The notes under the pieces were generated by a model. It searched no databases and was not told the origin of the DNA. It saw only the letters and a list, made by a program, of their open reading frames with translations. The position numbers were made by a program, and so were the translations under genes. From a virus (taxonomy: Duplodnaviria > Caudoviricetes), in IMG/VR virus record IMGVR_UViG_3300033559_000026, positions 4,399 through 68,398 of that record: DNA of 64,000 nucleotides; one strand, given 5' to 3'. Shown one piece after another: positions 188 to 17,436 of the stretch (positions are counted from its first letter, which is position 1; every line of letters begins with the position of its first letter).

Positions 188-314
188 AAATAACTCCTTC
201 CCCAAGGTGGCGCGAACCTCGCATGGAACTACCACACAAGGGTCAGGAAGTTATAAACTATTGCTTTGCGAGGTTCGCTTATAGTTCCTGTTATTACTAT
301 TTATATTATAACAG
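188..314 (-). ncRNA. Structured leader element, copy A (late promoter plus paired segments)
   Basis: TATAAATA at 298-305 (minus); GGAACTA/TAGTTCC and GCGAACCTCGCA/TGCGAGGTTCGC complementary pairs; homologous to five other copies. Confidence 0.75.
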
Positions 315-327
315 AAACTCCAATAAC

Positions 328-543
328 TCAAACAGCCAGAACGCCTCGGAACTCCTGAACACCCTCGGGAGTGGCTGGGAAGGTCATCTTCAAGCCGCCC
401 GAAGCCAGCACAGTCGCGTCTGTGTCAGTCACTTCCACGCAGATGCCGTCATTGTACTTGCTGTCAGCGTCGAAGAAGCGACCCGTGACGCCACGGGTGA
501 AGCCACGGTTGAGCAGGATGGGAACGAAGGGGTTGCTTGACAT
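328..543 (-). CDS. Hypothetical protein
   Basis: ORF with RBS, co-oriented with neighbours. Confidence 0.7.
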   Translation of the reverse strand: MSSNPFVPILLNRGFTRGVTGRFFDADSKYNDGICVEVTDTDATVLASGGLKMTFPATPEGVQEFRGVLAV

Positions 544-552
544 GGTTTTCTT

Positions 553-735
553 TCAGGCAAACGCCGCACGGACGCGAGCGATGACGGGGTTGAGAGGGTT
601 GGTCGGATCGGGATACAGGGCAGGCTTGCCCCAGGCACTCTTGGCGACCCAGGCAGCAAGTGCCTTGGAGTTGTCGCCGTAGACGAAGGCAGCTTCAGTG
701 GCGACTCGGACGGGCATGGTGGGCTTGTTGCTCAT
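553..735 (-). CDS. Hypothetical protein, leaderless
   Basis: TTGACT-16nt-TATGAT then ATG 6 nt downstream. Confidence 0.7.
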   Translation of the reverse strand: MSNKPTMPVRVATEAAFVYGDNSKALAAWVAKSAWGKPALYPDPTNPLNPVIARVRAAFA

Positions 736-772
736 GCCCATATCATAGGGGGCGGGGAGGGAGAGTCAAGAA

Positions 773-958
773 CTACTTGGCGATGAGCTTGGCGAGCAGC
801 TTTAGCACTTCCTTGCCGTCATCTTTCTTTTCGCTGCCGTTCACCATGTTGTTCACCCATTTGTTCCACTTGGATATTAACCACAACACCGCAAGGAACG
901 GGGTAGCGGCGAGGCAGATGAGAGCGGCGGCTCCGATGAGCAGGAGAGCGGACATCAT
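773..958 (-). CDS. Small membrane protein
   Basis: Hydrophobic N-terminal half. Confidence 0.6.
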   Translation of the reverse strand: MMSALLLIGAAALICLAATPFLAVLWLISKWNKWVNNMVNGSEKKDDGKEVLKLLAKLIAK

Positions 959-1266
959 AGCGGCAGCCTCAGCGCCTTCTTCTCAGCATCGGTGAGCTTG
1001 GCGAGCGCAATGCGCTTGACTTCCTCCACATCGTAGTTCCAGTATTCAGCCACCGAAGCGAACAGCGGACCACACACTTCACGAACATCATGCTTCGGAT
1101 CCATCTTGGTGCCCATCACACCATGCTTGCCCCAAAAGCGTTTATCGTTGCAGACGGTGACTGCATCTTCCTTGTTGACGAAGCGAGCAGCCACTACGCT
1201 ATATCCGCGACCCTCCACTCCATCCGAGTTGTAGGTGAGTTCGTAATACTTGAGGGTCTGAGGCAT
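955..1266 (-). CDS. Hypothetical protein
   Basis: ORF; start moved to MPQTLKYY after promoter and RBS. Confidence 0.7.
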   Translation of the reverse strand: MPQTLKYYELTYNSDGVEGRGYSVVAARFVNKEDAVTVCNDKRFWGKHGVMGTKMDPKHDVREVCGPLFASVAEYWNYDVEEVKRIALAKLTDAEKKALRLPL

Positions 1267-1323
1267 GGGGTTCTCTTGGTTGTTGGTCTTATTGTACCAA
1301 TCCACTCACGCAGTCAAGCAGTT

Positions 1324-1503
1324 TTATCGGTCGTCGTCGTAGTGACGAACATCCTCGTCAAGCGAGTCCTCTTCCAGTTCCTTGACCCGAGCCTTGTAGC
1401 CCTTGGTTGCCTTGCCGTTCCAACCGTCGCCCCCCTTGTTCTTCTTCCACTTTGAGGGGTTGCGCTTTGGGCGCTCAACAAACACTTCGTTCTCGTTTTC
1501 CAT
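1324..1503 (-). CDS. Small hypothetical protein (MENENEVF...)
   Basis: Manually translated 59-aa ORF with RBS, below the ORF-track cutoff. Confidence 0.55.
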   Translation of the reverse strand: MENENEVFVERPKRNPSKWKKNKGGDGWNGKATKGYKARVKELEEDSLDEDVRHYDDDR

Positions 1504-1533
1504 GTGATTGTCCTGTTTCCTTATTTCTTTTGT

Positions 1534-1710
1534 TTATTCCTTGCTCTGGACGAAGAGCAAGAAACCGGCGGTTGACATGAACCCGAGAGTGGCGAGGGCG
1601 AATAGGATCGCTCCAAGTGAGCCGCTGGGGTAAGTGACGATGACAGGGGCAGTGATGAGGAAGCCCACGAAGCTGACGATGATGAGGATCTGGCGGAGGA
1701 TGTTGTTCAT
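1534..1710 (-). CDS. Small two-helix membrane protein, leaderless
   Basis: Manual translation MNNILRQILIIVSFVGFLITAPV...; promoter TTGACT/TACAAT 6 nt before ATG. Confidence 0.6.
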   Translation of the reverse strand: MNNILRQILIIVSFVGFLITAPVIVTYPSGSLGAILFALATLGFMSTAGFLLFVQSKE

Positions 1711-1747
1711 GCTAGTATTGTAAGGGGTGGGAGAAACAAGTCAAGGA

Positions 1748-1873
1748 TCACTCGTGAGAGCGACCCTTGTGCTTATTCTTGCGATTGTAGCGGTTCTTGT
1801 CGGTGAACACACGCTTGAAGGGGATGACGGGCAAGCGGGTGACGGTGCCGATGGTGGAGGGCTTGTTGCTCAT
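1748..1873 (-). CDS. 41-aa basic peptide ending DKNRYNRKNKHKGRSHE
   Basis: Manual translation; own promoter. Confidence 0.5.
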   Translation of the reverse strand: MSNKPSTIGTVTRLPVIPFKRVFTDKNRYNRKNKHKGRSHE

Positions 1874-2139
1874 GATGAGGGTATCCTACACCATATTTAT
1901 GGAATGTCAAGCAGGGTTCTTCTGAACCCTCAAGCGGTACAGCCTGCCACGCTTCGGGTGGTTATAAGCACGCATGTAAGCCTTTCCACCGAGTCGGAGG
2001 ATGCGCTTATGCTCACGGAGAGCATCAGTCTTGTCGGTGAAGAAAGCGTCACGGGGGTCATTGAGGTTCATATGGTTTCCTTGTAATCCTATTTTACGGG
2101 TTTGTAGAATAACTCAATCGGCGGTCGCCACTGTATCAC

Positions 2140-2415
2140 TCAGTTAGTCAGACCACAGGCAAAGTTCTCTTCCAGGGTAATCTCATGGTAGAAGAAAGAC
2201 ATGGTGCGGGTGGTGTACCACAGCTTGACCTTGACCTCAATAATGTCGCCCAGGTCACGAACAACCTTGCCAGAGTAGACCCTGGACAGGTTTCTGGCGG
2301 GCTTAACCTTGCCCGAACGCTTGCTGACGTACTCAGGCAGGAACTTGGAACGGAGGCACAGCACGGGCGTACCGGGCTTGAGGGAGGGGGAGCGGGAGGC
2401 AGTTGGGCGCTTCAT
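2140..2415 (-). CDS. Hypothetical protein, leaderless
   Basis: TTGACA/TATGAT promoter 6 nt before ATG. Confidence 0.65.
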   Translation of the reverse strand: MKRPTASRSPSLKPGTPVLCLRSKFLPEYVSKRSGKVKPARNLSRVYSGKVVRDLGDIIEVKVKLWYTTRTMSFFYHEITLEENFACGLTN

Positions 2416-2457
2416 GCTCATATCATAGGAAGCGGAGTTGATTTGTCAATGGGGTGT

Positions 2458-2892
2458 TTACTGACCGTATTGCAACTCTCGCTTCATGTAATCAATAACT
2501 TTTTGATGTTCTTCTATACTACCAGAGCCTTTTAGAGCATTAGCCCTATATGATATAACTTTTACATTCCCCTTGACATATCCACGAGTATTGTCTATTC
2601 TGTCGAGTGTTGGCGAGTTATCACTGAAATACTTTTTATCATCGTTTCCACCTATTATTATAGGTATTCCCAAAACCGGGCAAACCGTAGGAATAACTAT
2701 ATCTTCGACCGATATGTTTATTTCTAAGCCTTTTTCTACTGCTCTCTTTTTAGCAAGATGCAGCAGTATAGAGGGCATTCTACTTTTATATCTTTCTCTA
2801 TCTTTCCTGCGTATTTTGTCTTTATCATCGTCAGTTAGGTTCGCATATTTTATTCTGCGATTTTTATTATTTTGCTCTGTATTCCTTGACAT
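2458..2892 (-). CDS. HNH / His-Me-finger free-standing endonuclease
   Basis: IPTVCPVLGIPI...SPTLDRIDNTRGYVKGNVKVISYRAN motif; AT-rich; paralog of 4862-5533. Confidence 0.8.
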   Translation of the reverse strand: MSRNTEQNNKNRRIKYANLTDDDKDKIRRKDRERYKSRMPSILLHLAKKRAVEKGLEINISVEDIVIPTVCPVLGIPIIIGGNDDKKYFSDNSPTLDRIDNTRGYVKGNVKVISYRANALKGSGSIEEHQKVIDYMKRELQYGQ

Positions 2893-3020
2893 AATAACTC
2901 CTGCTTCCGTGTGGAACGAAACCCGGAATGGAACATCCACTCCGGAAGCAGGCGCTATAATAAACTTGACTTTCCGGGTTTCGTTTACTGTTCCTGCATA
3001 TCTATTTATATTATAGCAGG
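2893..3020 (-). ncRNA. Structured leader element, copy B
   Basis: TATAAATA 3003-3010; GGAACA/TGTTCC, ACGAAACCCGGAA/TTCCGGGTTTCGT, CCTGCTTCCG/CGGAAGCAGG (covers RBS), GTGGA/TCCAC. Confidence 0.8.
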
Positions 3021-3030
3021 TTCCGTTATT

Positions 3031-4266
3031 TCACCCAACAACCTTCAGGTGTGAGAGCATCACACTCTTGCCGAAGCGAGCATTATCATCCAGTTTCTTG
3101 ACCTTACCAGACACCTTGACGGTTGAGCCAGGGGTGAAGCTTTCCTTGGCACCCGAGTAGAAGGAACTGAACGTGTAGCCATCGGTGCTGACCATTTTGA
3201 TGAGCAGACTGGTGCCGAAGGAACTGAACACTTCCTTGACCATGTTGATGCTGACTTCCACCGCAACCTTGTCGCCTTCCTTGCAGGGGTAGAACTCATT
3301 CTTGACGGTTGACTTCACGCTTTCCTTGGCAATCTTGCCGATCTCGTAGTAGATAGCAGCAGCCGCAAGCTGGGCATCCTTCACACCAACATAGCCCTTG
3401 TTGAGCAGAATACCGAACTTGAAGGCAAAGGCATCCAGAGCAGTTGGATTGTTGATATAGGAAGGCAGGATCCGGTCAGACAGACGCTTGACAACCGAAG
3501 CAGCCATAGCCTTATGCTCGTCAGTCGGGGTCATTTCCTTGCGCCAGTCAGCGAGGCGCGGTTCCTTGCCGAGAGTCAGCAGCAGAACATCGTCGCCGGT
3601 CTTGACCTTGCCGAACTCAGCGGCAGCAGCATTGACGAATCCATTCTTGCTCACAAGCGAGATGGTAGCAGCAGCGAACTCGTCCAGGGGAACGACACGG
3701 GGAGCAGCCGAACCGTAGCCCCAGCGTTCCCCGTCGTTGCCGATTTCACTGATAGCAGCATCGAACTCCATACCAGCAACGGCAGCAGCAGGATCCACAC
3801 CCAGGAACACTTCAAGGCAGGTTGAACCGACCATGACAGTTTCATCGTTGCACGACTGAACCACATAACCAGCGTTCCGCTTGCGATTGATGCCGCAATG
3901 CGAGCAGACGATTGGCGAAGTCACGAAGCGAGCCGCATGCTCGTTTGACAGGTTGATGCCCGAAACCTTGTTCCGGGGAACTCCATTGACTTCATCAGCA
4001 TGCTCGACCTTAGCGATGAACACATAATCGCCAGCCTTGCGGATTACTTCATAGTCGATCTTGACCTCATTCCACTCGACCAGTTCCGGAAACTTCTTGT
4101 CCTCGCTCACGTCCACCGTGTAGGAGCGGAGGATGCTGGCAACGGGAGCCTTGCAGCCCAGCTTGACAGCCTTCTTGCCCAGCTTCGCCAGAGCAGCAGT
4201 CAGTTGCTCAAAGCGGAAGGCGGGGATGTTGAGGGTGCGGCTGGCGAGGGTGGGAGCGTTGCTCAT
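3031..4266 (-). CDS. Conserved-type phage protein with CxxC...C motif and probable C-terminal OB-like fold
   Basis: 411 aa; CSHC...VGSTCL; leaderless promoter. Confidence 0.6.
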   Translation of the reverse strand: MSNAPTLASRTLNIPAFRFEQLTAALAKLGKKAVKLGCKAPVASILRSYTVDVSEDKKFPELVEWNEVKIDYEVIRKAGDYVFIAKVEHADEVNGVPRNKVSGINLSNEHAARFVTSPIVCSHCGINRKRNAGYVVQSCNDETVMVGSTCLEVFLGVDPAAAVAGMEFDAAISEIGNDGERWGYGSAAPRVVPLDEFAAATISLVSKNGFVNAAAAEFGKVKTGDDVLLLTLGKEPRLADWRKEMTPTDEHKAMAASVVKRLSDRILPSYINNPTALDAFAFKFGILLNKGYVGVKDAQLAAAAIYYEIGKIAKESVKSTVKNEFYPCKEGDKVAVEVSINMVKEVFSSFGTSLLIKMVSTDGYTFSSFYSGAKESFTPGSTVKVSGKVKKLDDNARFGKSVMLSHLKVVG

Positions 4267-4572
4267 GAGTGTAGTATATGAAGCGGGGGAGGGGAGTCAA
4301 CAGAGAGTTTTACAGTGTGACACAGTGGCGACCGCACCGGGTCGGTCTTGACCCTACTTGCTCACCTTCGGCTTGCGAGCCTTGCTCACCTTGATGGCAG
4401 GGTCGTAGCCGTCATGGTTGATGAGGGAGCGCAGCACATAATCCTTGTCGCAGTTCTTGTCGAAGAACACGGTGTCGATGTTCTTGCGGTTGAGAGTGAC
4501 GGTCCAGGCGTTGCATGCCATGTCAGCGGTTCCTTGGTTGTTGAGCAGAGTATAGGGCTTGGCGTCAGGTTG

Positions 4573-4818
4573 TCAAGCGGCAGCATCCTTGGTGATGGCA
4601 TCCAGCTTATCCTCCATCTGCTTCAGCAGCGAGAGCATCGCCAGGGTCTTGCGGCTCTTGCCCTTGCCGATCCAGGCACGAAGGTCAGCAGCGCAGCCCT
4701 TGGCGTAGCCAGCATCATACTTGATGCCGCCCATCTTGCCAGCGTAGATGCAGTTGCGGTTGAAAAACTCGTCGGCACGCTTGGCGTCGAACGAGAGGGA
4801 GGGGTTGTCGTTGCTCAT
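4573..4818 (-). CDS. Hypothetical protein, leaderless
   Basis: Promoter TTGACA/TATACT abutting ATG. Confidence 0.7.
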   Translation of the reverse strand: MSNDNPSLSFDAKRADEFFNRNCIYAGKMGGIKYDAGYAKGCAADLRAWIGKGKSRKTLAMLSLLKQMEDKLDAITKDAAA

Positions 4819-4861
4819 GCGTGTAGTATAGGCGGCGGGGAGCGGCTGTCAAGCGATGAAG

Positions 4862-5533
4862 TCAGTGTGTCATATACTCTATTATCTTTTTGAGTTCTTC
4901 TATTGTAGAGTCGCGTTTTATGGCATTGGCACGCCACGATATAACTCTCACATTACCCTTGACATAACCTTTTGAGTTGTCAATGCGGTCAAGCGATGGT
5001 GAGTTATTTCTGGCAGTCATTTCACAATCACGATGTATTGGTATTCCAAGAACAGGGCAGACCTCGGGAATAACTATATCGTCAACAGTCAAGTCAAACT
5101 CCAATCCATTACGTTTTGCTCGCCTTTTAGCATCAGACAACAAACGCTTCTCTTTATGCTTTATATAAGCGGCTCTTCCTCGTTCACGTCTCAACATTAG
5201 TTCATCGGGGATTAGATTTTCGGATTTTCGCATTTCATTGAGAAATACCTTATTCCCATTCCAGTGTTTGCGGCTGGTATTATTATGCTTTTCTATCTGT
5301 TCAGGTGTCAAGTTCTCTTTCCGTTTAGCGGCTCTAAGTTCCTCAAGTTCTGATGGCGTTAGACTGCTATATTTTTCTCTATTTTGTAGATTTATTCTAT
5401 CTCTATTTTTATCCACCCATTCTCGTTTCCACCTTCTACCACATTCCAAACAAGTGTTCCTTTTCTTCATGAATAAGGATGCGTTTTTCTCAACGCCACA
5501 TTTATTACAAACTCTTGTTTCGGTATTTTCCAT
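4862..5533 (-). CDS. HNH / His-Me-finger free-standing endonuclease with N-terminal zinc-finger
   Basis: CNKC..CLEC; IPEVCPVLGIPI...NSPSLDRIDNSKGYVKGNVRVISWRAN. Confidence 0.8.
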   Translation of the reverse strand: MENTETRVCNKCGVEKNASLFMKKRNTCLECGRRWKREWVDKNRDRINLQNREKYSSLTPSELEELRAAKRKENLTPEQIEKHNNTSRKHWNGNKVFLNEMRKSENLIPDELMLRRERGRAAYIKHKEKRLLSDAKRRAKRNGLEFDLTVDDIVIPEVCPVLGIPIHRDCEMTARNNSPSLDRIDNSKGYVKGNVRVISWRANAIKRDSTIEELKKIIEYMTH

Positions 5534-5648
5534 AAAATAACTCCTGTTCCAAGTGGTACAAGCCTCGCGGGAACGACCAGCGAGGAACAGGAGTTATAAA
5601 CTTTATTGCTTGCGAGGCTTGTTTACCGTTCCTGTATTACTATTTATA
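5534..5648 (-). ncRNA. Structured leader element, copy C
   Basis: TATAAATA 5641-5648 overlapping the upstream gene's stop; GGAACG/CGTTCC, ACAAGCCTCGC/GCGAGGCTTGT, TAACTCCTGTTCC/GGAACAGGAGTTA. Confidence 0.8.
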
Positions 5649-6251
5649 AAACTTTTTACCGATTTTGCCAATTATTTTTACCCGACTTTCATACTTATCC
5701 CAACAACGGGCGTGATACGCTGTCAAGTCACCTTCACAATCCCGAGAAGCGTTTGCTGCTATTTCTATGTTATGCCCCTCGTCAAGTAATCCGTTGATAC
5801 TCTCAGCAAGGCATGCGCAGAGATTTACTCCACATACACGGAAGGTCACTTCGTCAGCAGGCTTCATCATCTTGCGCAGCGGGTTGCGGTGACGCTTCCA
5901 GCCGTTCATCAGCCCAAGGACGGGTTTCACCCCACGCATCACATCCAGCACTTCCTCGGCTCCGCTGTCATTATCTTTCAGCACATACCACGCACGGGAG
6001 TAGCTGCCAATCTCAGCCCGAATGTCATCATGGGTGCGGGTGGCGAAGTAGCCGTCGCCATCATATTCCAGATTGGCGTATTCCAGCACGATGATGGGGA
6101 GGCGGTTGCGCTTCGCCCAACGAACCTGGGCGCATGCGGCGTTGATGAGCGCCTGTTCTCGACCATCCTTCACACCGAACTGGTCAGTAGTGCCAAGCTC
6201 GCCAGTGAAGTAGGGTTGAAGGTCGCAGACGATGAGGGCGGTAGCGGTCAT
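5640..6251 (-). CDS. Isochorismatase / cysteine-hydrolase family protein
   Basis: LIVCDLQPYF (Asp), KDND (Lys), CGVNLCAC (Cys) triad pattern. Confidence 0.7.
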   Translation of the reverse strand: MTATALIVCDLQPYFTGELGTTDQFGVKDGREQALINAACAQVRWAKRNRLPIIVLEYANLEYDGDGYFATRTHDDIRAEIGSYSRAWYVLKDNDSGAEEVLDVMRGVKPVLGLMNGWKRHRNPLRKMMKPADEVTFRVCGVNLCACLAESINGLLDEGHNIEIAANASRDCEGDLTAYHARCWDKYESRVKIIGKIGKKFYK

Positions 6252-6286
6252 ATGTCACCATCATACAAGGCGGCGGGAGAAGTCAA

Positions 6287-6325
6287 GAAACAAACAAGGG
6301 GAGCCGATTTCTCGGTTCCCCTTTC
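6287..6325 (-). terminator. Intrinsic terminator
   Basis: GGGGAACCGA-GAAA-TCGGCTCCCC followed by TTGTTTGTTT. Confidence 0.75.
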
Positions 6326-6409
6326 AGTCACCACAACCAATCAGTTCATCATCCCCCTGTTTGCGAGCGTCCCCACGCTCTGTCCCAGCCGTCCCATGCT
6401 GGCTGGTAT
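6290..6409 (-). ncRNA. Candidate ~120-nt small RNA
   Basis: TTGACA(6438-43)/TACAAT(6416-21) promoter, two hairpins, terminator, only an 18-codon ORF without RBS. Confidence 0.4.
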
Positions 6410-6447
6410 GACTCTATTGTAAGGCGGTTTCCGGTTTTGTCAATACC

Positions 6448-6648
6448 CTACTCGAAGTACCAGACCTCAATATGTTTCTTTGTGAACTCTTGATAGGTCT
6501 GGATCGACCCACACTCGGGGTCGTTGTCGTGTGGCATCGCATTTCGGTCAGCCCACTTGCGGTAGATGGCTTGCGAGATTGCGTTGCCCTTACGAGCTTC
6601 CTTGAGGGCGGAGAACGCTTGCTTGAGATTAAACTTTGATGGATCCAT
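6448..6648 (-). CDS. Hypothetical protein, tandem paralog 1
   Basis: Aligns by eye with 6657-6857 (A.KGN.IS.A.Y..WA..N.MP...DPE). Confidence 0.7.
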   Translation of the reverse strand: MDPSKFNLKQAFSALKEARKGNAISQAIYRKWADRNAMPHDNDPECGSIQTYQEFTKKHIEVWYFE

Positions 6649-6656
6649 TGTTTCCC

Positions 6657-6857
6657 TTAGTCGATGAAGATGTTCATGTATGCGATGGCGTAGAACTTGT
6701 CGTAATCGGTCACAGCATCGTATTCAGGGTCGGGCAGCAGAGGCATCTTGTTGCTCGCAGCCCACTCGTTGAACACGGCAGCCGATACCATGTTGCCAGC
6801 CTTAGCCAGCACGAACACCTTGTAGGCTTCATCCAGTAGAAGATCGGTGGGCTTCAT
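6657..6857 (-). CDS. Hypothetical protein, tandem paralog 2
   Basis: See 6448-6648. Confidence 0.7.
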   Translation of the reverse strand: MKPTDLLLDEAYKVFVLAKAGNMVSAAVFNEWAASNKMPLLPDPEYDAVTDYDKFYAIAYMNIFID

Positions 6858-7200
6858 GCTCGTGCGCCCCGCAAGACTGCCACGCCGTAGTGCTTGGCAG
6901 CACGCTTCTGAACCTCACGCACACGGATGAGCCTGTCGAGCGCCTTTCCGTTGCGAGGGAAGTCGCAGTAGGCGGCGAGGGCATTCTGGTAGGCGAGGTT
7001 GAGAATGGCGGGGAGGGTCTTGCTCATGCTTATATCGTATCAAGTGGGGAGCGAAGTCAAGCCGAGACTTTTACGAACCTCAGCGGTTTCGGCGGTGGTT
7101 AGTTCAGGCTGTCTCACACGCTCACCGTTCACCGTCAGGGTTCCATCGTAGTTGATGAACTCGGTGGCTCGGTAGTTGTTCAGCCAGATTTCGGCGTTGC

Positions 7201-7428
7201 TCACCCGTTAGCCTCTTCCTCAAGGAACTCGTAAACCTTGTCAGGGATTTCGTCACGGGCGGCGGTGTCCATGTTGCGCACCTTACTGTAGGCACCGCCG
7301 TAGTTGCCTTCCTCCATCATTCGAGCGACAGCGAACATGTCTTCCGCATCGCCAGCATACATCGACATCATATCGGCTTCCTTCTGCTCCTTTGCCTGGG
7401 CAAACTTGCTCTCGGCAGCCTTCTGCAT
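7201..7428 (-). CDS. Hypothetical protein
   Basis: ORF track; start uncertain. Confidence 0.55.
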   Translation of the reverse strand: MQKAAESKFAQAKEQKEADMMSMYAGDAEDMFAVARMMEEGNYGGAYSKVRNMDTAARDEIPDKVYEFLEEEANG

Positions 7429-7465
7429 GAGGTTGATGAGCTTCTGGACTCGGGGGAGATTTTAC

Positions 7466-7708
7466 TCACTTGGCACTCCTGTCACTCTTGACATACCACT
7501 TCTTCGCCTTGGGGTAGTAGACGGCACGGGTGAAGGTCAGCGCAGGGCGGTGAGGGTAGAAGGCAACAGCCTCGCCCGAGTTGATGAGCAGCGCATCAGC
7601 CTTGCGGATGCTGCCAACACCGCTTGACCAGTCGTAGGTATAGGTGTTGGTGATGGTGCCATCCTTGCGAATGACAGAGATAGGCGGGGAGTTGGTCTTG
7701 TAGCTCAT
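7466..7708 (-). CDS. Hypothetical protein
   Basis: Start MSYKTN 8 nt after TACAAT. Confidence 0.6.
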   Translation of the reverse strand: MSYKTNSPPISVIRKDGTITNTYTYDWSSGVGSIRKADALLINSGEAVAFYPHRPALTFTRAVYYPKAKKWYVKSDRSAK

Positions 7709-7740
7709 ATGTGTTTTATTGTAGGAGTGGGTGACGAATG

Positions 7741-7938: not shown

Positions 7939-7968
7939 GCGTATAGTGTAGCGGCTTCCTGCCGAGTG

Positions 7969-10073: not shown

Positions 10074-10115
10074 ATGTGTTTATTGTAGGGGTTGGGGGCG
10101 GAAGTCAAGCGTCAG

Positions 10116-10325
10116 TTATGCCGCATCATCCACGACAATCTGCTTGACATAGAAGTTGAAGCACAAGCCCTTTGTGGCGATGTTGTTGGCAACTGTGTCA
10201 TACAACTCCTGCGCTCGGAACTCAGCATCCTCGGGTTTCGAGAAGATGCCGAAGTTGCGCTCAACCTCCAGCATATTGCCGTTGAGGGAGACGGTGCGGG
10301 TGACGGAGAAGAGTTTCTTGCTCAT
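10116..10325 (-). CDS. Hypothetical protein, leaderless
   Basis: Promoter abutting ATG. Confidence 0.65.
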   Translation of the reverse strand: MSKKLFSVTRTVSLNGNMLEVERNFGIFSKPEDAEFRAQELYDTVANNIATKGLCFNFYVKQIVVDDAA

Positions 10326-10569
10326 GCGAGTATCTTACAGGGTTGTGGTGAGAGTCAAGAACTACCTGTCACCAGCCACGAAGCGGTCGAAGTATTCCTG
10401 GGTATCCTCGGTGACTTCCTGCCCGTCGTTGGTGACGGAAGCATACAGGTCATCCAAGTCTCGTTCCTGCTTCATGAAAGCCTGGACGAGCGGATCGGTG
10501 GAGGGGAGGTTTTCGATTTGGGAGTAGCGGATCATGAGCATGATTATATGGAGCGGGAGCCAATGTCAA

Positions 10570-10598
10570 GAACGAAGAAACCCAGCGCAAGCTGGGTT
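10570..10598 (-). terminator. Intrinsic terminator
   Basis: AACCCAGC-TTGC-GCTGGGTT then TCTTCGTTCTT. Confidence 0.6.
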
Positions 10599-10709
10599 GA
10601 GAGTCGGCGGATCTAAGGTCAAATGGACCGGGTGCTGCTGCCCCCCTCTAGCGACCGCAGGCGTCGTTCCTGCGGTGGTCATTGTTTTTCGCTATTCTCG
10701 TTTACTCGT

Positions 10710-10943
10710 TTACTTAACCATCCCCTCAAGCACGCTCTGGCTCACCTTCTCAGCCCCACCCAGCCCATACTGCCCCAGGTGCTTGCTGGTGGTGCGGGAA
10801 TACTTGACCTCGGTCTGGTAGCGGGTGCCATCGGCAGCCACCACACCCACAAGGGTCTTGTAGGAGTAGTACGCCTCGACACCAGACTGGAGTCGGACGG
10901 CAACTCGGTTGCTCTCGTTGATGATGATGGTGGGGGTAGACAT
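10710..10943 (-). CDS. Hypothetical protein
   Basis: ORF track, phage-like small protein. Confidence 0.65.
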   Translation of the reverse strand: MSTPTIIINESNRVAVRLQSGVEAYYSYKTLVGVVAADGTRYQTEVKYSRTTSKHLGQYGLGGAEKVSQSVLEGMVK

Positions 10944-11017
10944 GGGAGTGTGCCTTTCGTGGCTTCTCTTGGGTGATGTGTCTATTCTACAGAGTCGGAG
11001 CGGAAGTCAAGACCTTT

Positions 11018-11323
11018 TCAGGCGACCCGAACCGCATCCACTCGGAAGTAGCGAGCCGCACGCTCGGTGACTTCCTCGACCACGGGGCGGAGAGCGGCGG
11101 GGATCTTGGCATCGGTGCCCTTGACAGCCCGACCGAAGGCAATCTGCCACGACTTGCGCTTGTCGATGTTGCCCAGCTTGCGGTCAGCCTTGGCGACGAA
11201 AGCCCAGCCAACGGTCACATCACCAGACGGACCCTGGAAGGCAGCAGCCAGCCCGATGGGGTTGCCCTTGGAGTCACGCAGATGGCGAGCGACGGTGTTG
11301 CGGGGGACGGTGAACTTGGACAT
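11018..11323 (-). CDS. Hypothetical protein
   Basis: AAGGA RBS before MSKFTV. Confidence 0.7.
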   Translation of the reverse strand: MSKFTVPRNTVARHLRDSKGNPIGLAAAFQGPSGDVTVGWAFVAKADRKLGNIDKRKSWQIAFGRAVKGTDAKIPAALRPVVEEVTERAARYFRVDAVRVA

Positions 11324-11607
11324 GTGTTTTTCCTTGTAGGAGGTTGAGAGTTGATTGTAGGAGGCGGGAGCCGTTGTCAAGCGATAGCTGCGACGGCGCT
11401 TTTGATGCTATGAAAAAACGAATCGCAGTAGCAGTCGGTCATGATGTCGGTGTGAGGGCTGCGAGCGACCACATAGGTCGTGATCGGGTCTTTCTCGTCG
11501 TAGTAGCTCGTGCCACCCTTGACATGCACGAACTTGGGCTGGGTGTGCCACTCGACCATCCGACCGGAATTGGGGTTCTCAGCGATGAAGCTGGGATTAC
11601 CCCGACG

Positions 11608-11731
11608 CTCCTGCTCCCGAGTGGAACGAAGCCCGGAATGGAACATCCATTTCGGGAGCAGGCGTTATATAAACTTGAGTTTTCCGGACTTCGTTTATTG
11701 TTCCTGCTATTACTATTTATATTATAGCAGG
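11608..11731 (-). ncRNA. Structured leader element, copy D (complete, no endonuclease downstream)
   Basis: TATAAATA 11714-21; ACGAAGTCCGGAA/TTCCGGGCTTCGT, CCTGCTCCCG/CGGGAGCAGG; no ATG after the AGGAG. Confidence 0.8.
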
Positions 11732-11742
11732 TTTTCTTATTT

Positions 11743-12078
11743 TTACATCTTCACATATGAAACGGAATAATACTTGCAGGCATCCTCCGCGATCTGGTCA
11801 AGCTCGGCAAGATACTTGTTGTGCTGCGCTTCGACGTTGCCCTTGGTCATGCGAACCTTGCCACGCTGGAACACTCGGTTGTAGTCACGCCCCATCAGAT
11901 ACTTGACGAAGCCACCCTCCACGATGCCGACACTGGCACGGGTGATGAGTTCACCATCGAACGAGCGGTGAGTGGTCAGGGAAAGCTGACGGTTGCCAGG
12001 AAGGGCGGCGGTCGTTTCGACTCGCTTCTCCTTGCTGGTGAAGGTGGAGTAGGTGGTGGAGACGAGAGTGTTGCTCAT
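11743..12078 (-). CDS. Hypothetical protein
   Basis: Own promoter TTGACA/TACAAT. Confidence 0.7.
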   Translation of the reverse strand: MSNTLVSTTYSTFTSKEKRVETTAALPGNRQLSLTTHRSFDGELITRASVGIVEGGFVKYLMGRDYNRVFQRGKVRMTKGNVEAQHNKYLAELDQIAEDACKYYSVSYVKM

Positions 12079-12109
12079 GGGTATGATTGTATTGGTTGGG
12101 GTGGGCTTG

Positions 12110-12406
12110 TCAAGAGGGAAAAGTTGTTCCCTCGGGGTAGTAGGCGTTGCGGGGTTTGGTTTCAGGCGGCGAACAGTGACCAGCGTCGATCAGAGCGGCG
12201 GCGGTTCGACCATAGCAGCCCTGAAGCTGCCACGCCATTCCGGTGTCGATCAAGCCCTGGAAAAAGTCGATGACTTCATCCTCGGTGTTTATTTCACCGG
12301 ACTCGAAAGCCATGATCTTATCCACAGAGCAGCGGGGGTCATTGAGAGCCATGTAGGCGGTTCCTTGGTTGTTGAGCATATCATAGGCATCGGCTGCATA
12401 TGTCAA
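12110..12406 (-). CDS. Hypothetical protein
   Basis: ORF; true start possibly internal. Confidence 0.6.
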   Translation of the reverse strand: MTYAADAYDMLNNQGTAYMALNDPRCSVDKIMAFESGEINTEDEVIDFFQGLIDTGMAWQLQGCYGRTAAALIDAGHCSPPETKPRNAYYPEGTTFPS

Positions 12407-12407
12407 G

Positions 12408-12779
12408 TCACTTCTTCACAGGCACCAAGATGCCGTCCTTCTGCACAAAATCCATGGTCAGGGCGGGGTCATTGCTGCTTGCGGCAGTCTGCTTGCGCTT
12501 CTTGCGACCATCGGGGGTGCGCTTCGGCTTGTTGAGCGGCTTGCCTTCCAGATTGGTCTTGACAACCCGTTCATCCTTCTGGCGGAAATACTCACCAATG
12601 TCGATCAGCTTCTCCATGATAACATCACGAAGCGGGGCGAAGGTCGGGTGCTTGAGCATGAAGCGGAGAGAAGCCACGACTTCCTCACTCAGTCGGTCAG
12701 GCTCATACGAGCGGATAGTGGCAGCAAGAGCGGCGTAGGCTGGCTTCATTGGGGGTTCCTTATGCGGTTCATTATCCAT
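12408..12779 (-). CDS. Hypothetical protein
   Basis: ORF track. Confidence 0.55.
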   Translation of the reverse strand: MDNEPHKEPPMKPAYAALAATIRSYEPDRLSEEVVASLRFMLKHPTFAPLRDVIMEKLIDIGEYFRQKDERVVKTNLEGKPLNKPKRTPDGRKKRKQTAASSNDPALTMDFVQKDGILVPVKK

Positions 12780-12811
12780 GGTAGCATCCTCCTGTCAATA
12801 CTATTTAGACA

Positions 12812-12846
12812 CGAAAAACCCCCACCTGTACCACACAGATGGGGGA
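12812..12846 (-). terminator. Intrinsic terminator
   Basis: CCCCCATCTGT-loop-ACAGGTGGGGG then TTTTT. Confidence 0.7.
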
Positions 12847-12874
12847 ACGCCTTGGTGCAGCGTATTTGTTTTTA

Positions 12875-13696
12875 TCAAGCCTGCGGGGCGGTGAAGTCCT
12901 CGGGCTGGGTAGGCGCAGGAACATCAGCCTTCACGGCAGGCTGGCGGCGGTAGGCGAACTTCTCGGCACCAAACTCCTTGCGAAGATGCGGCAGCGAACG
13001 CTGGAAGGTTGCGAGCTTCCAACCGACAGCATCGGCGCACTCCTGGGCGCTCTTGCCGCTATTCCAGGCTTCCGACAGCTTCTCGACCTTCGCCAGCTTC
13101 TCAGCCTGACCCTCGGCGGTGTTCAGCGCCGTGCGACCGAAAGCGGGGCGCTTGGGAAAGAGTTCAGGGAACTTGCGGCGAAGAAGAACGATCTTGACCT
13201 GGGCGGCATTGTCCGACTTCAGACCAGCAGCTTCACGAAGCTCACCGATCTTCGCACCGCTCTTCCAGAGAGCCGAGAGAGCGTTGACCTTCTGCATCTT
13301 CGCTTCCTTCTTCGCACCCTTGACAGCAGCAACCTGCTCGGCACGGGCAGCCGACTTCACAGCAAGTCGCTCCTTGTGGGCGGCGATAGGAACGATGCCC
13401 TGACCCTTGAGGATCAGCGAGATGTTCTGGTGGGTGACATTGTATTCAGCGGCGAGCGCACGAGTCGAAGCTCCAGCCGCAGCCTTGGCGGCAATCTCGG
13501 CGTTGCGCTCGGTGAACTTCGAGGTCTTGTGGGTATACTTGCGCTTCTCGGGCTTGATGCCCTTGACCAGCTTGTTCACGGAAGGGGCGGAGATGTTATG
13601 CTTGACAGCAAGCTCTCCCTGAGTGAAGTTGCCAGTGGCGTAGTCAGCACGGATGGCGGCGGTGAGGGTTTCATCAATCTTGGCACGAACAGTCAT
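12875..13696 (-). CDS. Multi-HTH DNA-binding protein
   Basis: About four HTH-like segments (TQGELAVKHNISAPSV; STRALAAEYNVTHQNI; KIGELREAAGL; SAQECADAVGWKLAT); basic. Confidence 0.65.
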   Translation of the reverse strand: MTVRAKIDETLTAAIRADYATGNFTQGELAVKHNISAPSVNKLVKGIKPEKRKYTHKTSKFTERNAEIAAKAAAGASTRALAAEYNVTHQNISLILKGQGIVPIAAHKERLAVKSAARAEQVAAVKGAKKEAKMQKVNALSALWKSGAKIGELREAAGLKSDNAAQVKIVLLRRKFPELFPKRPAFGRTALNTAEGQAEKLAKVEKLSEAWNSGKSAQECADAVGWKLATFQRSLPHLRKEFGAEKFAYRRQPAVKADVPAPTQPEDFTAPQA

Positions 13697-13791
13697 TGTG
13701 TTTCTCCTTGTAGGTTGTAATGACAGGTTTAGTATAACAGGCTTTAGCGGATCGGCAATCGGGAAAGAAGCTTATAGCTTTTTGGTTGGTG

Positions 13792-14310
13792 TCAAAAGCG
13801 GGGCGATGAGAAAGGCTTGGAGACGAGTGTGCCGTTGGGCAGGCGTACCACGTCGAACACAAAGAAATGCTTGCCTGTCTGAAGCTCCTTCCATTCGCTC
13901 GACTCCATCAGACTCTCCTGGGTGCTGAACTCACGGGAGACGATAGAGTAGGAGGGGCTGGTCTTCGAGTAATCGTGACCACTGCCCGGCAGGGCTTCGA
14001 ACGAAACCTTGGAGTCAGCCAATCCCCAGCCGAACATCTGGCGCAGGAGCTTAATGCAGCCGATCTTGTTGGTGCTTCCTTCAGGGTTGACGCCCGTGAT
14101 GCGGATGTGGAACAGACCCTTGTTCTCATCTTCACGCTCCAGAGCGTCGGCATGCTTGGCGACTTCTTCGATGAAGCGGATAGGGTCATCAACAGCCTGT
14201 AGACGGGAGAAGCCGTTCCACTGGTTCAGCGTCAGAAGAGTCTGAATGCTGCCAACCAGAAGCCGTGCCAGTTCCTTGGCGTTGCAATCCTTCTCACCGA
14301 TGATATCCAT
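13792..14310 (-). CDS. Hypothetical protein with ribosomal L7/L12 C-terminal-like segment
   Basis: NKIGCIKLLRQMFGWGLADSK resembles the KI.IK.VR..GLGL.EAK motif. Confidence 0.5.
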   Translation of the reverse strand: MDIIGEKDCNAKELARLLVGSIQTLLTLNQWNGFSRLQAVDDPIRFIEEVAKHADALEREDENKGLFHIRITGVNPEGSTNKIGCIKLLRQMFGWGLADSKVSFEALPGSGHDYSKTSPSYSIVSREFSTQESLMESSEWKELQTGKHFFVFDVVRLPNGTLVSKPFSSPRF

Positions 14311-14505
14311 TAGAAGAAGCTCGCAATCTTCTCGAAGTAGAAGGCAACCATCACCACATACTCACCGCAGAAGCGGTTGTAGTGGATCATGGAGTTCATG
14401 AAGGCAGTGGCTTGCTCGGCTGACTCGAACATTGTTTTTCTTCCTTGATGTGTATATTGTAGGAGTTGGCGAACAGAAGTCAAGGGGTCAGGACTGCCCC
14501 TTATC

Positions 14506-15246
14506 TCAAACTGTATCACACAACACATTATCCAGAAACACAACTATATCCGCATCGGACATAGTAAACTTTATTCTATATAAAACTATATTGTTATCAT
14601 TACAATATTTGGTTTTTATATTATCTCTTCTACGAACTTTACTCAACTGTTCTTCACTGTCAGTTCCAAACCAAATATTAGATTTATAAAAATGCTGCTC
14701 CCCATCATATTCTATACAAATGTTTTTAGATGGTAAGTAAAAATCAAAAGGAAGTGGAAGTTTATCGCGACAACTATGAAATCTTTTTTCCCGTGTAAAA
14801 TCTATATTTTTACTTTTTAGGTATTCTTCTATGAAAATCTCCCTCTTACTACTTCGACATTTAGGGCATCCTTTTCCGCTTATAAAACTTCCAGCTAACG
14901 GGGACCACTCTCCGTGTTTCCTACATATAACAACTATTCGGGAGCGGGTGCCTTTATATTCTATTTTATCCAACAAATATCTATCGCCGTGTTTCACTTT
15001 ACATCTATCAATAAAATCATTATCATGTGTTCTTGTTTTAGTGTTGGACGCTTCCTGGCTACATTTCTTACATCCACATACCAAAAACCTATCGGCTCTT
15101 GTATTCCATTCTCCATGTATTTTACATATTGGTGTCACTTTACATCTGGAGTTCGTATAAACTATTTTACTAATATCATATTTGTCGCCATGTTTATCAA
15201 TACAATCTAATATATACTTTTCGTGCGATTTAGGTTTCGGACCCAT
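14506..15246 (-). CDS. Free-standing homing-endonuclease-like protein: Cys/His repeats plus Vsr/DUF559-like nuclease domain
   Basis: Two HGDKY..CKIHGEW..GCxxC repeats; LPFDFYLP..ICIEYDGEQH; AT-rich. Confidence 0.8.
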   Translation of the reverse strand: MGPKPKSHEKYILDCIDKHGDKYDISKIVYTNSRCKVTPICKIHGEWNTRADRFLVCGCKKCSQEASNTKTRTHDNDFIDRCKVKHGDRYLLDKIEYKGTRSRIVVICRKHGEWSPLAGSFISGKGCPKCRSSKREIFIEEYLKSKNIDFTREKRFHSCRDKLPLPFDFYLPSKNICIEYDGEQHFYKSNIWFGTDSEEQLSKVRRRDNIKTKYCNDNNIVLYRIKFTMSDADIVVFLDNVLCDTV

Positions 15247-15375
15247 AAAATAACTCCTGCTTCCGTGTGGAACAAGTCTGGAATGGAACATCCACTCCGG
15301 AAGCAGGCGCTATAATAAACTTGAGTTTTCCAGACTTGTTTACTGTTCCTGCTAATACTATTTATATTATAGCAG
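15247..15375 (-). ncRNA. Structured leader element, copy E
   Basis: TATAAATA 15359-66; ACAAGTCTGGAA/TTCCAGACTTGT, CCTGCTTCCG/CGGAAGCAGG. Confidence 0.8.
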
Positions 15376-15386
15376 AAAAATGTATT

Positions 15387-15683
15387 TTAACTAACTCCGG
15401 TGGGATGACTGCCATTCCAGCTTGCGTCATGGTCAGCCGCATCCTCGGCATCATACATGTCGTTGCGGGGCATCTGCTCCAGCATCTCGTATCGGTTGGA
15501 GGTCAGACCCGAACGCAGCTTGGCGTTGTATCGCTGACGGGCTTCCTCGGCAATCGTCAGCATGAGGTCAAGATACTCGTTGTCGTCGGTGACTCCACCA
15601 GCCGAAGCGGGGTTGTCAGCCCGATGGACTGCTTCGAGGTAGGCGGAGAAGATTCGACCAGCGGTGGGGGAGAGGTTGCTCAT
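15387..15683 (-). CDS. Hypothetical protein
   Basis: Start MSNLSPT 7 nt after TACAAT. Confidence 0.65.
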   Translation of the reverse strand: MSNLSPTAGRIFSAYLEAVHRADNPASAGGVTDDNEYLDLMLTIAEEARQRYNAKLRSGLTSNRYEMLEQMPRNDMYDAEDAADHDASWNGSHPTGVS

Positions 15684-15700
15684 GGGTATTATTGTATGGG

Positions 15701-15952
15701 TTATTTCAGAGACGCAAGTATTTTTTCCAGAGTCTTTATGAACTCCCAGCGGTCGTTCTCTTTTGCCACAGTGATCCAGATATGGTTGCCGAAGTGCCCG
15801 TTGTATTCGATATCCCAAACGCCCTCAACCTTTTTGAGTTGTGCGTATGGGGTCGTATCGTCATGCTCGTCATCAGCACGCTCAAGCAAGATGAACTTGT
15901 CAAGAGGAATGTCGATCTTGTAGGTCAGGCTGACGATTTCGTGGCGAAGCAT
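15701..15952 (-). CDS. Hypothetical protein
   Basis: ORF track. Confidence 0.6.
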   Translation of the reverse strand: MLRHEIVSLTYKIDIPLDKFILLERADDEHDDTTPYAQLKKVEGVWDIEYNGHFGNHIWITVAKENDRWEFIKTLEKILASLK

Positions 15953-16163
15953 TACTTGCTCACCAGCCCATCAGCACCAATCACAGCCACACGGCGCTTG
16001 TAGCCCTTGGGGTCGAGGTCATGGATCACCACCCTGCGAGGATTGGGATTGTGCGAGTTCTTGATGGTTTCAGCCGACGCATTGACGGCGGTCGCCTCTG
16101 TGTCACCCACACCGAGAGTCAGAGCGTTTCCAGAGTCGGTCACGAGGTAGCGGGGGATTGGCT

Positions 16164-16463
16164 TCACTTGGCAGTCTCCGCAGCGATGGCATCGGCACTT
16201 GCCGCCCAACTCTCGCTGTCCATCACGATGTTTTTCAGGGTTTCGGGCGACTGCACCGCCATGAGATACGCAATCTCACGATACATTGCCCACTTATTCG
16301 TGAGGAACTTGCGAGTGTCCTCACTCAGCCCCTTGGCATTGGACGCCTTGAAGTAGTTTTCAGCCACCTTGGAGATGGCGATGTTGATGTTTTTCTTGGA
16401 GACGCGCTTCATGGGGTATCCTTGGTTGATGCTCTGATTGTAGCGAGCTACCGTCAGAGTCAA
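16164..16463 (-). CDS. Hypothetical protein
   Basis: ORF track; start possibly MKRVSK. Confidence 0.6.
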   Translation of the reverse strand: MTLTVARYNQSINQGYPMKRVSKKNINIAISKVAENYFKASNAKGLSEDTRKFLTNKWAMYREIAYLMAVQSPETLKNIVMDSESWAASADAIAAETAK

Positions 16464-16648
16464 TCCCGAACCTTAACCTCATCGTAGCTGCACCACACAC
16501 TTGCACCGCCTCCCAGCGAGGGAATGTCAACGAGGCAGCCGTCATCAGCAACCTCCGACACGACACCATCGGCTGCGATGCGTCCCCAATCCTCGTCATC
16601 CTTATTGACATGAACGGGAGACATGGGACGGATGTTGGGACGGGACAT
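16460..16648 (-). CDS. Hypothetical protein
   Basis: RBS and upstream promoter. Confidence 0.6.
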   Translation of the reverse strand: MSRPNIRPMSPVHVNKDDEDWGRIAADGVVSEVADDGCLVDIPSLGGGASVWCSYDEVKVRD

Positions 16649-16871
16649 GTTTGTTTTCCTTGGTTGATGCTCAGAGTATATCAGTCGGCAGCCAGAGTCA
16701 AGAGATAACCACCTGCCGCAGCCCGCTCTCCTTCACATCGTAAGCTTTCTCCACACCATCATCATTGCCCACAGTGTCATACTGAGCCAGCACGACTTCC
16801 ATGTGAGCAGCCTTGGGGTTTTTCTTGATGACATCGTTGAGGCGGTTGATGAGTTCCTGGGCAGTCATGGT

Positions 16872-17222
16872 TCAGGCTCCCAACTTGACAAGAGCCGCCA
16901 GCACTCGCTTGGAGCCACCCGAGCGGTTCATCTTGAAGCGACCGCTGTTGAGGGCGCACATGCCACCGATGCCGCCGCCATCCGTGCCCCAATCCGAGCC
17001 GGGTTCCGTGCGAGGCAGCAGACCCAGCACCGAGTAGTACATCATGTCGCAGTCGCGGAAGCCTTCGTTGCTGCCAGCCGGGAAGCTCTTGTGAACGGTC
17101 AGGATGCCGCCGCGAACCTCAAGCGTGAAGCCGTACTTGGCAGCGGCTTCCTTGATGCTCTTGGCGATTTCGATGGGAGAGGGCTTGGTAGCCATGGGGT
17201 CATGTCCTTGGTTGATGCTCAC
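16872..17222 (-). CDS. Hypothetical protein
   Basis: Own promoter TTGACA/TATCAT. Confidence 0.7.
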   Translation of the reverse strand: MSINQGHDPMATKPSPIEIAKSIKEAAAKYGFTLEVRGGILTVHKSFPAGSNEGFRDCDMMYYSVLGLLPRTEPGSDWGTDGGGIGGMCALNSGRFKMNRSGGSKRVLAALVKLGA

Positions 17223-17310
17223 ATGATAGCGACTGGAAGCCGCTTGTCAAGCCTCAGTTTTGAGCATATCCAGCGCCTCTTTCAGCCCGTCCACCAATCC
17301 AGAATTATAC

Positions 17311-17338
17311 ATAAAAACGCCCTTTGCACTCGGGCGTT
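17311..17338 (-). terminator. Intrinsic terminator downstream of truncated element F
   Basis: AACGCCC-GAGTGCAAA-GGGCGTT then TTTAT. Confidence 0.65.
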
Positions 17339-17369
17339 CATCCATCATCTCACAAGACTTATCGCGTAG

Positions 17370-17436
17370 AAACTTGACTTTCCAGGGTTCCGTTTATTGT
17401 TCCTGCTAATACTATTTATATAAGTATTATAGCAGG
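17370..17436 (-). ncRNA. Structured leader element, copy F (5' half only)
   Basis: CCTGCTA..TATAAATA(17413-20)..TAGCAGGAACAATAA-ACGGAACCCTGGAA-AGTCAAGTTT, then homology stops. Confidence 0.7.

Follow-up and report, generated by a model that had tools for sequence, protein, structure and literature searches.

A covarying RNA leader with a late-type promoter ahead of mobile nuclease genes in an uncultivated giant-phage clade: a probable reader of transcript origin

The closest described systems are T4-type genes in which a late promoter is combined with a hairpin sequestering the ribosome-binding site (RBS), as in I-TevI, segB, e and soc of phage T4 and mobE of phage Aeh1; I-TevII, I-TevIII and T4 gene 49 belong to the same control group (PMC2988022, PMC3014915). 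T4-type phages also harbor PeSL cassettes, which join early promoters to terminator-like stem-loops (PMC2839356, PMC4122927). The locus described here lies in a 64,000-nucleotide stretch of DNA (the window) from the Caudoviricetes record IMGVR_UViG_3300033559_000026 (positions 4,399 to 68,398), whose parent 68.4-kb IMG/VR contig has a GC content of 47% and a CheckV completeness of 32%. It contains repeated copies of a structured RNA of ~130 bases that has its own late-type promoter and is placed 5' of mobile nuclease genes. This element is probably the cis-regulatory leader of homing-endonuclease cassettes in an uncultivated clade of giant phages, combining a T4-type late promoter with an RNA switch that reads the origin of the transcript; its most likely function is transcript-origin-dependent translation control, with the nucleases translated only from late-promoter transcripts.

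The window holds five full copies of the leader and one 5' half, all on the minus strand (Table 1; window copies are called c1 to c6, and other loci and contigs carry L-numbers). From 5' to 3', a copy is composed of TATAAATA, strands a and b, an AAGTTT linker, strands c, d, a', b', d' and c', the last of which contains the Shine-Dalgarno (SD) sequence, and ATG. A first-pass annotation, made from the letters alone, had listed six minus-strand elements with this order of parts and with the sequence variants of stems a and b, all of which is borne out; a hairpin around the promoter, P0, and a four-strand relay were absent from its list and are added here. P0 encloses the promoter, with TATAAATA in its loop and its 5' arm upstream of the promoter. 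A covariance model (R1), built from ten copies and given hairpin P0 and helix b as its structure, gives scores of 99-138 bits for the five full copies and of 43.5 bits for the truncated sixth, and finds no further match in the window or in the 4.4 kb of contig upstream of it. Most copies begin ~10-20 nt past the stop codon of the upstream gene, the first-pass annotation having put each of them just behind such a codon; c3 overlaps that stop codon, which falls within TATAAATAG. The proposed succession of an RBS-containing c' and an ATG holds in the complete copies, with the exception of c4, which has no ATG; c6 is only a 5' half, retaining the arm, the promoter, a, b and the start of the linker, followed by unrelated sequence and a terminator-like hairpin.

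The motif TATAAATA occurs 12 times in the window versus 1.3 expected. All six minus-strand occurrences are within an element, the motif being confined to leaders on this early-type minus arm, and the six plus-strand occurrences each stand 10-25 nt before the ATG of an ordinary gene. It is invariant across copies save the IMG/VR copy L244, whose promoter reads TATAAATAA. By analogy with T4, TATAAATA would be a late promoter, with a predicted start site ~6 nt downstream. A perfect TATAAT lies directly 5' of TATAAATA (3011-3016 in c2, and at the equivalent site in other copies) and is kept despite a 6-nt insert before TATAAATA in c6 (17421-17432), L216a, L238 and L244; it may be a second promoter element. 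No sigma70-type promoter was found on the coding strand of the elements at the scan thresholds, where TATAAT abuts TATAAATA and no -35 box was found.

Judged by motif and genomic context, the nuclease genes appear to be embedded in early or middle transcription units with their own TATAAATA promoter directly upstream, as in the T4 scheme, and the c/d duplex sequesters the SD in a stable helix in all full copies. As in T4, the SD would be locked in a stable hairpin on read-through RNA and its release, as proposed here, would be set by the transcript start. The geometry differs: in T4, the promoter lies within the SD hairpin and the late RNA misses one of its arms, whereas here the promoter is located ~115 nt upstream (both c and c' are downstream of it in c2) and both arms of the SD hairpin are present in the late RNA. 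What the late RNA misses here is the arm of another hairpin, P0, and release would need the relay. The long-range covarying pairings a:a', b:b' and b*:b' have no T4 counterpart, b* being a short stretch between c and d that repeats the 3' half of b in most copies and can pair with the 5' half of b'. With P0, a, b, c/d and the relay, the element is more complex than the single T4 RBS hairpin, as the first-pass annotation had held; by analogy, it is most likely a distinct, more elaborate variant that works like the I-TevI/mobE scheme.

In the hok mRNA of plasmid R1, which refolds through its tac, fbi, ucb and dcb segments, the partner with which the 5' end pairs decides between a closed and a translatable fold, and metastable co-transcriptional structures are formed. 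The likeness to the leader is that a 5'-end pairing partner sets the fold and that such metastable structures matter; the hok trigger, however, is 3' processing plus an antisense RNA and not promoter choice, and sequence and context are unrelated. Classical trp-type attenuators use alternative 1:2, 2:3 and 3:4 pairings and share with the leader four consecutive strands of which the middle ones each have two exclusive partners. Their input is ribosome position or a ligand and their output termination, whereas the leader would respond to whether strand 1 is present in the transcript, with access to the SD as its likely output. PeSL cassettes resemble the leader as repeated intergenic units of promoter plus stem-loop that flank variable genes and occur in recombinogenic-looking copies, but neither SD sequestration nor crossing helices have been reported for them; in place of an early sigma70-type promoter with a terminator-like stem-loop, the element has a late-type promoter and a 115-nt leader.

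Ten full copies were found beyond the window, in metagenome and IMG/VR contigs, which brings the total to 15 distinct full copies. Scanning metagenome contigs for a pattern yielded five true copies, distributed over four contigs (L214, L216 with the two copies L216a and L216b, L220 and L227), close relatives of the c3 nuclease led to four (L236, L237, L238 and L241, with L242 and L243 identical to L241), and a 3'-anchored pattern gave one IMG/VR copy, L244, whose b strand is that of the truncated c6. A covariance model and a metagenome search had been suggested in the first-pass annotation, together with a look at the genes downstream; every complete leader save c4 proved to precede a free-standing homing-endonuclease gene. 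The first two pattern scans of IMG/VR returned chance hits only, no relatives of the c3 nuclease were found in IMG/VR, and R1 detected a leader neither in front of 80 relatives of the Vsr-like nuclease from IMG/VR nor in L127, L246 and L239/L240. In two further relatives, gene maps alone indicate gaps of 116-140 nt ahead of nuclease genes.

The whole 64-kb window has no match in Rfam at gathering thresholds, and five weak hits obtained at E<=5 over positions 1-18000 do not overlap the element. Elsewhere in the window, the intergenic region 6281-6544 (minus strand) weakly resembles CsrC/CsrB (22 bits, gathering score 61, E 0.004). Among 50,697 cultured-phage records, there was no real match to a leader (blastn) or to positions 1-6000 of the window (megablast); a single RNA-ligase gene places giant phages of Salicola, Ralstonia and Caulobacter nearest among cultured phages. 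No RNA runs were among the sequencing runs listed for this DNA, and contigs from four DNA runs were short, low-depth pieces with no clean empty-site joint. The element, which the first-pass annotation could not assign to a described family, is not found described in Rfam, in cultured-phage records or in the literature searched, and it is real and strongly covarying.

Covariation was assessed on a 14-copy alignment fitted to a model that contains b and P0 and not a, c or d. On this alignment, the crossing structure formed by a, b and c/d has 93.7% of its cells paired, versus 78.5% in shuffles and 38-49% when partners are slid, and 22 of its 34 pairs show changes on both sides, a number reached in 0/500 shuffles; the earlier observations that the stems vary yet keep pairing and that the a, b and c strands cross are both confirmed. 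Helix a is 100% paired, and its sixth pair is A-U, G-C or U-A; because it differs on both sides between close copies (L216a and L216b; L220 and L227), these differences point to independent events. Helix b (11-14 bp) is 96% paired, with 12 of 13 pairs changed on both sides, and b pairs with its own b' at -23.9 kcal/mol versus -11.0 kcal/mol with the b' of another copy. Helix c/d is 89% paired, with two-sided changes at 9 of 15 pairs; its c/d:d'/c' duplex (-25 to -33 kcal/mol) buries the SD to near the AUG in all full copies and forms a C/D hairpin of ~15-20 bp with a 20-nt loop and internal loops. Pairing in hairpin f (b*:b') amounts to 83.9%, a level equalled by 1/500 shuffles. When own partners were compared with those of other copies, the own strand was better for all seven proposed helices, a result equalled by only 0-14 of 5000 permutations. 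From a MAFFT alignment, RNAalifold recovered the c/d hairpin only, since the b strands were misaligned.

The junctions are tight, with 0-1 nt from d to a' and from b' to d'. Because a single nucleotide joins a' (in a 6 bp helix) to b' (11-14 bp), geometric reasoning argues against a, b and d being fully formed together, while partial pseudoknots are possible. As a separate observation, c2 and c5 are identical over a 32-nt c/d region and differ at several b/b' positions with pairing kept (2916-2984 versus 15271-15338), among them a one-base deletion in b that is matched by one in b'; of the parts of the leader, helix b is the fastest-evolving. Hairpin f was also considered as a conserved terminator and rejected, its T tract being absent in c3, L220 and L227.

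Four strands make up the relay: the arm upstream of TATAAATA, the SD mimic with which the late transcript would begin, strand c as the anti-SD and strand c' with the SD itself. The 3' arm of P0 is the predicted start of the late transcript, (A/G)CAGG, often extended into GGAAC; this 5' stretch copies the SD region, with GCAGG or ACAGG at both places, and is complementary to c. In the orthologous copies L241 and L237, all four strands differ together: L241 has arm GTTCTTGT, 5' end ACAGGAAC, c TTCCTGT and SD ACAGGAG, and L237 has arm GTTCTTAT, 5' end GTAGGAAC, c TTCCTAC and SD GTAGGAG. Helix P0, helix g (5' end and c) and helix C (c and c') draw on shared nucleotides, which makes them mutually exclusive; the RNA must therefore have alternative folds.

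In the proposed mechanism, RNA reading through from upstream early genes would carry the arm, which would pair with the mimic in P0 and tie up the mimic and part of a. With the mimic occupied, the anti-SD would be free to form the C/D hairpin, locking the SD and the spacer up to the AUG and turning translation off, a lock that b:b' probably reinforces. RNA started at TATAAATA would have no arm; its 5' end would pair with the anti-SD (helix g) and with a', b* would capture the 5' half of b' (hairpin f), and the SD would stay open long enough for ribosomes to load. The assignment fold by fold, with P0, b:b', c:c' and d:d' as the OFF state and 5' end:c, a:a', b*:b' and e as the ON state, is tentative. 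Somewhat more speculative is the notion of a ligand-free bistable device whose two pseudoknotted folds are set by its own 5' end and which is portable between unrelated nuclease genes; b:b' could then be a copy-specific barcode that would keep several copies on one polycistronic RNA from cross-pairing. The ON state is probably co-transcriptional and transient, since equilibrium folding and duplex sums favour the state with the SD closed; this would suit a toxic gene needing low expression. Promoter class, transcription start, the allotment of helices to ON and OFF and the kinetic ON state are all predictions.

Three contrasts are consistent with a shielding of the nuclease genes from early read-through. 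The leader-free nuclease located within the late operon of the window, where R1 finds no match, is a full-length homologue (40% identity, E 4e-44) of the leader-bearing L220 nuclease; the nuclease gene of a relative that is antisense to its neighbours is preceded by a bare TATAAATA and an SD; and the weak-arm copies L220, L237 and L241 have an intrinsic terminator just upstream. In nested folding, whose energies cannot score the pseudoknot contacts a:a' and b:b', the g-state lies above the c-state by a mean of 3.4 kcal/mol in late RNA and 7.0 kcal/mol in read-through RNA, and it is the more stable of the two in 3 of 14 late RNAs. The predicted switch of the lowest-energy fold is seen for L216a and not for c1-c3.

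Several points weigh against a switch of this kind. Equilibrium nested folding keeps the SD mostly paired in both RNA forms, and opening it costs 2-9 kcal/mol; the arm brings about a shift of just 3.6 kcal/mol on average, with values near zero or of opposite sign in some copies; and duplex-energy sums favour OFF (about -54) over ON (about -32), so that the ON state would be possible only transiently or with aid from pseudoknot contacts, ribosomes or a factor. Formal covariation of helices g and P0+e is weak when these are taken alone (18/500 shuffles for g, 90-111/500 for P0 and e jointly), both being mostly invariant in sequence. Copy c3 has no arm, and L220 and L236 have weak arm-like pairings (-3.2 and -7.4 to -8.2 kcal/mol). 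Finally, the putative late identity of the promoter and its start are drawn from T4, the sequence covers about a third of the genome, and the roles proposed for a:a' and b:b' are assigned by logic.

The same energies would suit a static pseudoknot in which a, b, c and d form together in every transcript, the SD is permanently buried and expression depends on a late factor acting in trans, for example a helicase, an S1-type protein or a nuclease that cleaves the AU-rich loop of P0; such a fold could instead mainly stabilise the mRNA or guard GGAG from a RegB-like nuclease, as T4 secondary structure shields GGAG from RegB (PMC3014915). All four helices covary, the junctions at d/a' and b'/d' are tight, the OFF set is by far the most stable and the SD is closed at equilibrium in both RNA forms. 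This explanation is nevertheless unlikely: the one-nucleotide link between a' and b' makes full pairing alongside d sterically doubtful on geometric grounds, and neither the four-way change of arm, mimic, anti-SD and SD, nor the b* copy of b, nor the position of the promoter within a hairpin is explained by it. The four-strand logic could also serve transcription attenuation, the C/D hairpin and GUUAUUUUAUG terminating early read-through RNA and the relay acting as anti-terminator in late-promoter RNA only. Like classical attenuators it has 1:2, 2:3 and 3:4 pairings; in 14 of the 15 full copies (c4 is the exception), a U-rich tract comes after a strong GC-rich stem, and polarity would be costless, each downstream early gene having a sigma70-like promoter right after the nuclease stop codon. 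The hairpin nonetheless has a 20-nt loop and internal loops, and its U tract is broken up and extends over the SD spacer and the AUG; unambiguous terminators at other places in the window differ in appearance (e.g., 12845-12819), and the T4 precedents act at translation, so that attenuation is a less probable output still.

The element could also act mainly at the DNA level, with RNA pairing secondary, as a shuffling cassette, a late counterpart of the T4-type PeSL in which a promoter plus stem-loop repeat serves as recombination site for nuclease genes (PMC2839356, PMC4122927 for the precedent). The copies are mosaic, c5 matching c2 exactly over the 32-nt c/d region and resembling c4 in its 5' part; one leader fronts three nuclease families; and presence or absence varies among relatives, with solo and truncated remnants. 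Compensatory changes, however, are not required of recombination sites, and two-sided changes affect 12/13 pairs of b and 9/15 of c/d; very unlikely as the main function, shuffling is compatible with the switch rather than a substitute for it. The first-pass annotation had left the choice between a switch, a ribozyme and a ribonucleoprotein (RNP) scaffold, of which the switch is favoured here and the other two find no support. A ribozyme, guide RNA or RNP scaffold acting with the nucleases would account for a crossing, covarying structure beside nuclease genes, for the lack of a known-family match and for the complete copy c4 without a nuclease gene, but is highly improbable: nearly all conserved nucleotides are explained by promoter, SD or helix, leaving no conserved unpaired block for a catalytic core or protein site; the search of Rfam at E<=5 gave no ribozyme or HEARO/omega-RNA match; three unrelated nuclease types, which have their own DNA-binding modules, share the leader; homologous nucleases, including the full-length one in the late operon, do without it where early read-through cannot reach; and the site of c4 has a nuclease gene in a relative, which speaks for a recent loss. 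That same relative led to the rejection of c4 as an autonomous RNA gene. A group I intron fragment was likewise discarded, the element being too short, without an Rfam hit, and beginning after a stop codon with its own promoter.

The nucleases behind the leaders are of three types, two HNH types and one Vsr/I-Bth0305I-like type, and PHROG places them in three families. Together with weak HNH and Vsr/I-Bth0305I matches of the structural models, this agrees with the earlier proposal that the module travels with nucleases of unrelated folds. The proteins of c1, c5 and L227 belong to phrog_559, and those of c2 and c3 to phrog_3322 by PHROG scan; L236, L237, L238 and L241 are placed in phrog_3322 by 39-59% protein similarity to the c3 protein and not by their own scan. 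The classical HNH type, with phrog_1035 as best hit, is found behind L214, L216a and L220 and, weakly, L216b (2.5e-06). An AlphaFold2 model of the c5 protein (pLDDT 90.6) matches Vsr (1vsr and 1cw0, probability 1.00, TM-score on target 0.56-0.58) and I-Bth0305I (3r3p, probability 0.97), with Foldseek E values across Vsr/I-Bth0305I of only 0.01-0.06; a Vsr-like catalytic domain, as in EDxHD / I-Bth0305I-like homing endonucleases, appears by this model to be present in the c1, c5 and L227 proteins. The c3 model (pLDDT 90) weakly matches PacI (E 0.069, probability 0.99) and ColE7/E9 domains (E ~1-2, probability ~0.1). PHROG names the c2 and c3 proteins endonuclease, endonuclease VII or HNH; these two had no Pfam hit, and sequence searches of the PDB with the nucleases were empty. 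Each leader nuclease type carries its own zinc-finger or repeat DNA-binding modules. The c3 nuclease (4865-5533, minus strand) and that at L220:1428-2138 have only an N-terminal zinc-finger/basic module in common (34% identity over 112 aa), their nuclease domains being different, which suggests domain shuffling among cassettes.

Table 1. Leaders, parts of the worked example c2 and nuclease genes in the window. R1, covariance model.
Feature	Position	Strand	Remarks
Leader c1	184-318	minus	R1 126 bits; ATG at 187
Leader c2 (worked example)	2888-3023	minus	R1 137.5 bits
c2 P0 arm	3013-3020	minus	
c2 TATAAATA promoter	3003-3010	minus	
c2 5' SD mimic GCAGG	2993-2997	minus	
c2 strand a	2989-2994	minus	
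c2 e 5' strand	2983-2988	minus	
c2 strand b	2972-2984	minus	
c2 e 3' strand	2960-2965	minus	
c2 strand c (anti-SD)	2943-2952	minus	
c2 strand d	2936-2940	minus	
c2 strand a'	2930-2935	minus	
c2 strand b'	2916-2928	minus	
c2 strand d'	2911-2915	minus	
c2 strand c' including SD	2898-2909	minus	
c2 ATG	2892	minus	
Leader c3	5531-5665	minus	R1 98.9 bits; no clear P0 arm
Leader c4 (solo)	11600-11734	minus	R1 128.9 bits; complete to SD; without ATG or nuclease gene
Leader c5	15244-15379	minus	R1 137.3 bits
Leader c6 (remnant)	17370-17439	minus	R1 43.5 bits; model match spans 17310-17439
Cys-repeat, Vsr/I-Bth0305I-like endonuclease behind c1	ATG 187, runs off window start	minus	318 aa; ORF L010:3632-4585; phrog_559 1.6e-66
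HNH-type homing endonuclease behind c2	2458-2892	minus	144 aa; phrog_3322 3.3e-31
HNH-type homing endonuclease behind c3	4862-5533	minus	223 aa; phrog_3322 6.1e-37
Cys-repeat + Vsr/I-Bth0305I-like homing endonuclease behind c5	14506-15246	minus	246 aa; phrog_559 2.7e-53
Leader-free classical-HNH homing endonuclease	43941-44555	plus	204 aa; within late operon, overlaps stop of upstream gene

L214, L216 and L220 are syntenic relatives of this phage, and on the called-gene map L236 has its gene order too. A cassette follows the DnaB-like gene in L214 and not in the window, a cassette (c2) follows the 409-aa gene in the window and not in L236, and the intergenic site of c4 is occupied in L216 by a leader and a 254-aa HNH gene. 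As relatives hold cassettes at different intergenic sites, the cassettes are mobile, with c4 and c6 as remnants. After c4, a GC-rich open frame (11377-11559, minus strand; ~60 aa from an ATG at 11559) is found where the relative has its nuclease gene, and it may now be expressed from the late promoter of the leader. Each cassette is flanked by the stop codon of the gene upstream and by a strong sigma70-like promoter that belongs to the next gene; the minus strand of positions 1-18500 has 39 sigma70-like promoters versus 12.7 expected, mostly of the form TTGACA-16-TAnnAT. Many of these directly adjoin the start codon of the small gene that comes next, and the stop codon of each nuclease gene is followed by one (2449-2422, 4852-4825 and 14483-14456). 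Tandem repeats were seen at two places: GACTGATAGGAT is present three times at ~1215-1255 of L220, before the terminator upstream of its leader, and CATAAGCCACT is repeated in the divergent region of the window (~20110-20170, plus strand).

Selfish nuclease genes have to be silent on the early messages of the phage and yet be made late, for which T4 uses one hairpin. The leader suggests that giant phages have a second way, a modular one, in which promoter and switch form one self-contained cassette that could be attached to any nuclease gene, and its 15 copies with dense compensatory changes make it a candidate new family of cis-regulatory RNA. It may offer a compact natural model of transcript-start-dependent, probably kinetic RNA folding and a possible template for promoter-gated translation. 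It also draws attention to a clade of uncultivated giant phages that is poorly known, is rich in mobile nucleases and comes from metagenomes of microbial mats and other environments.

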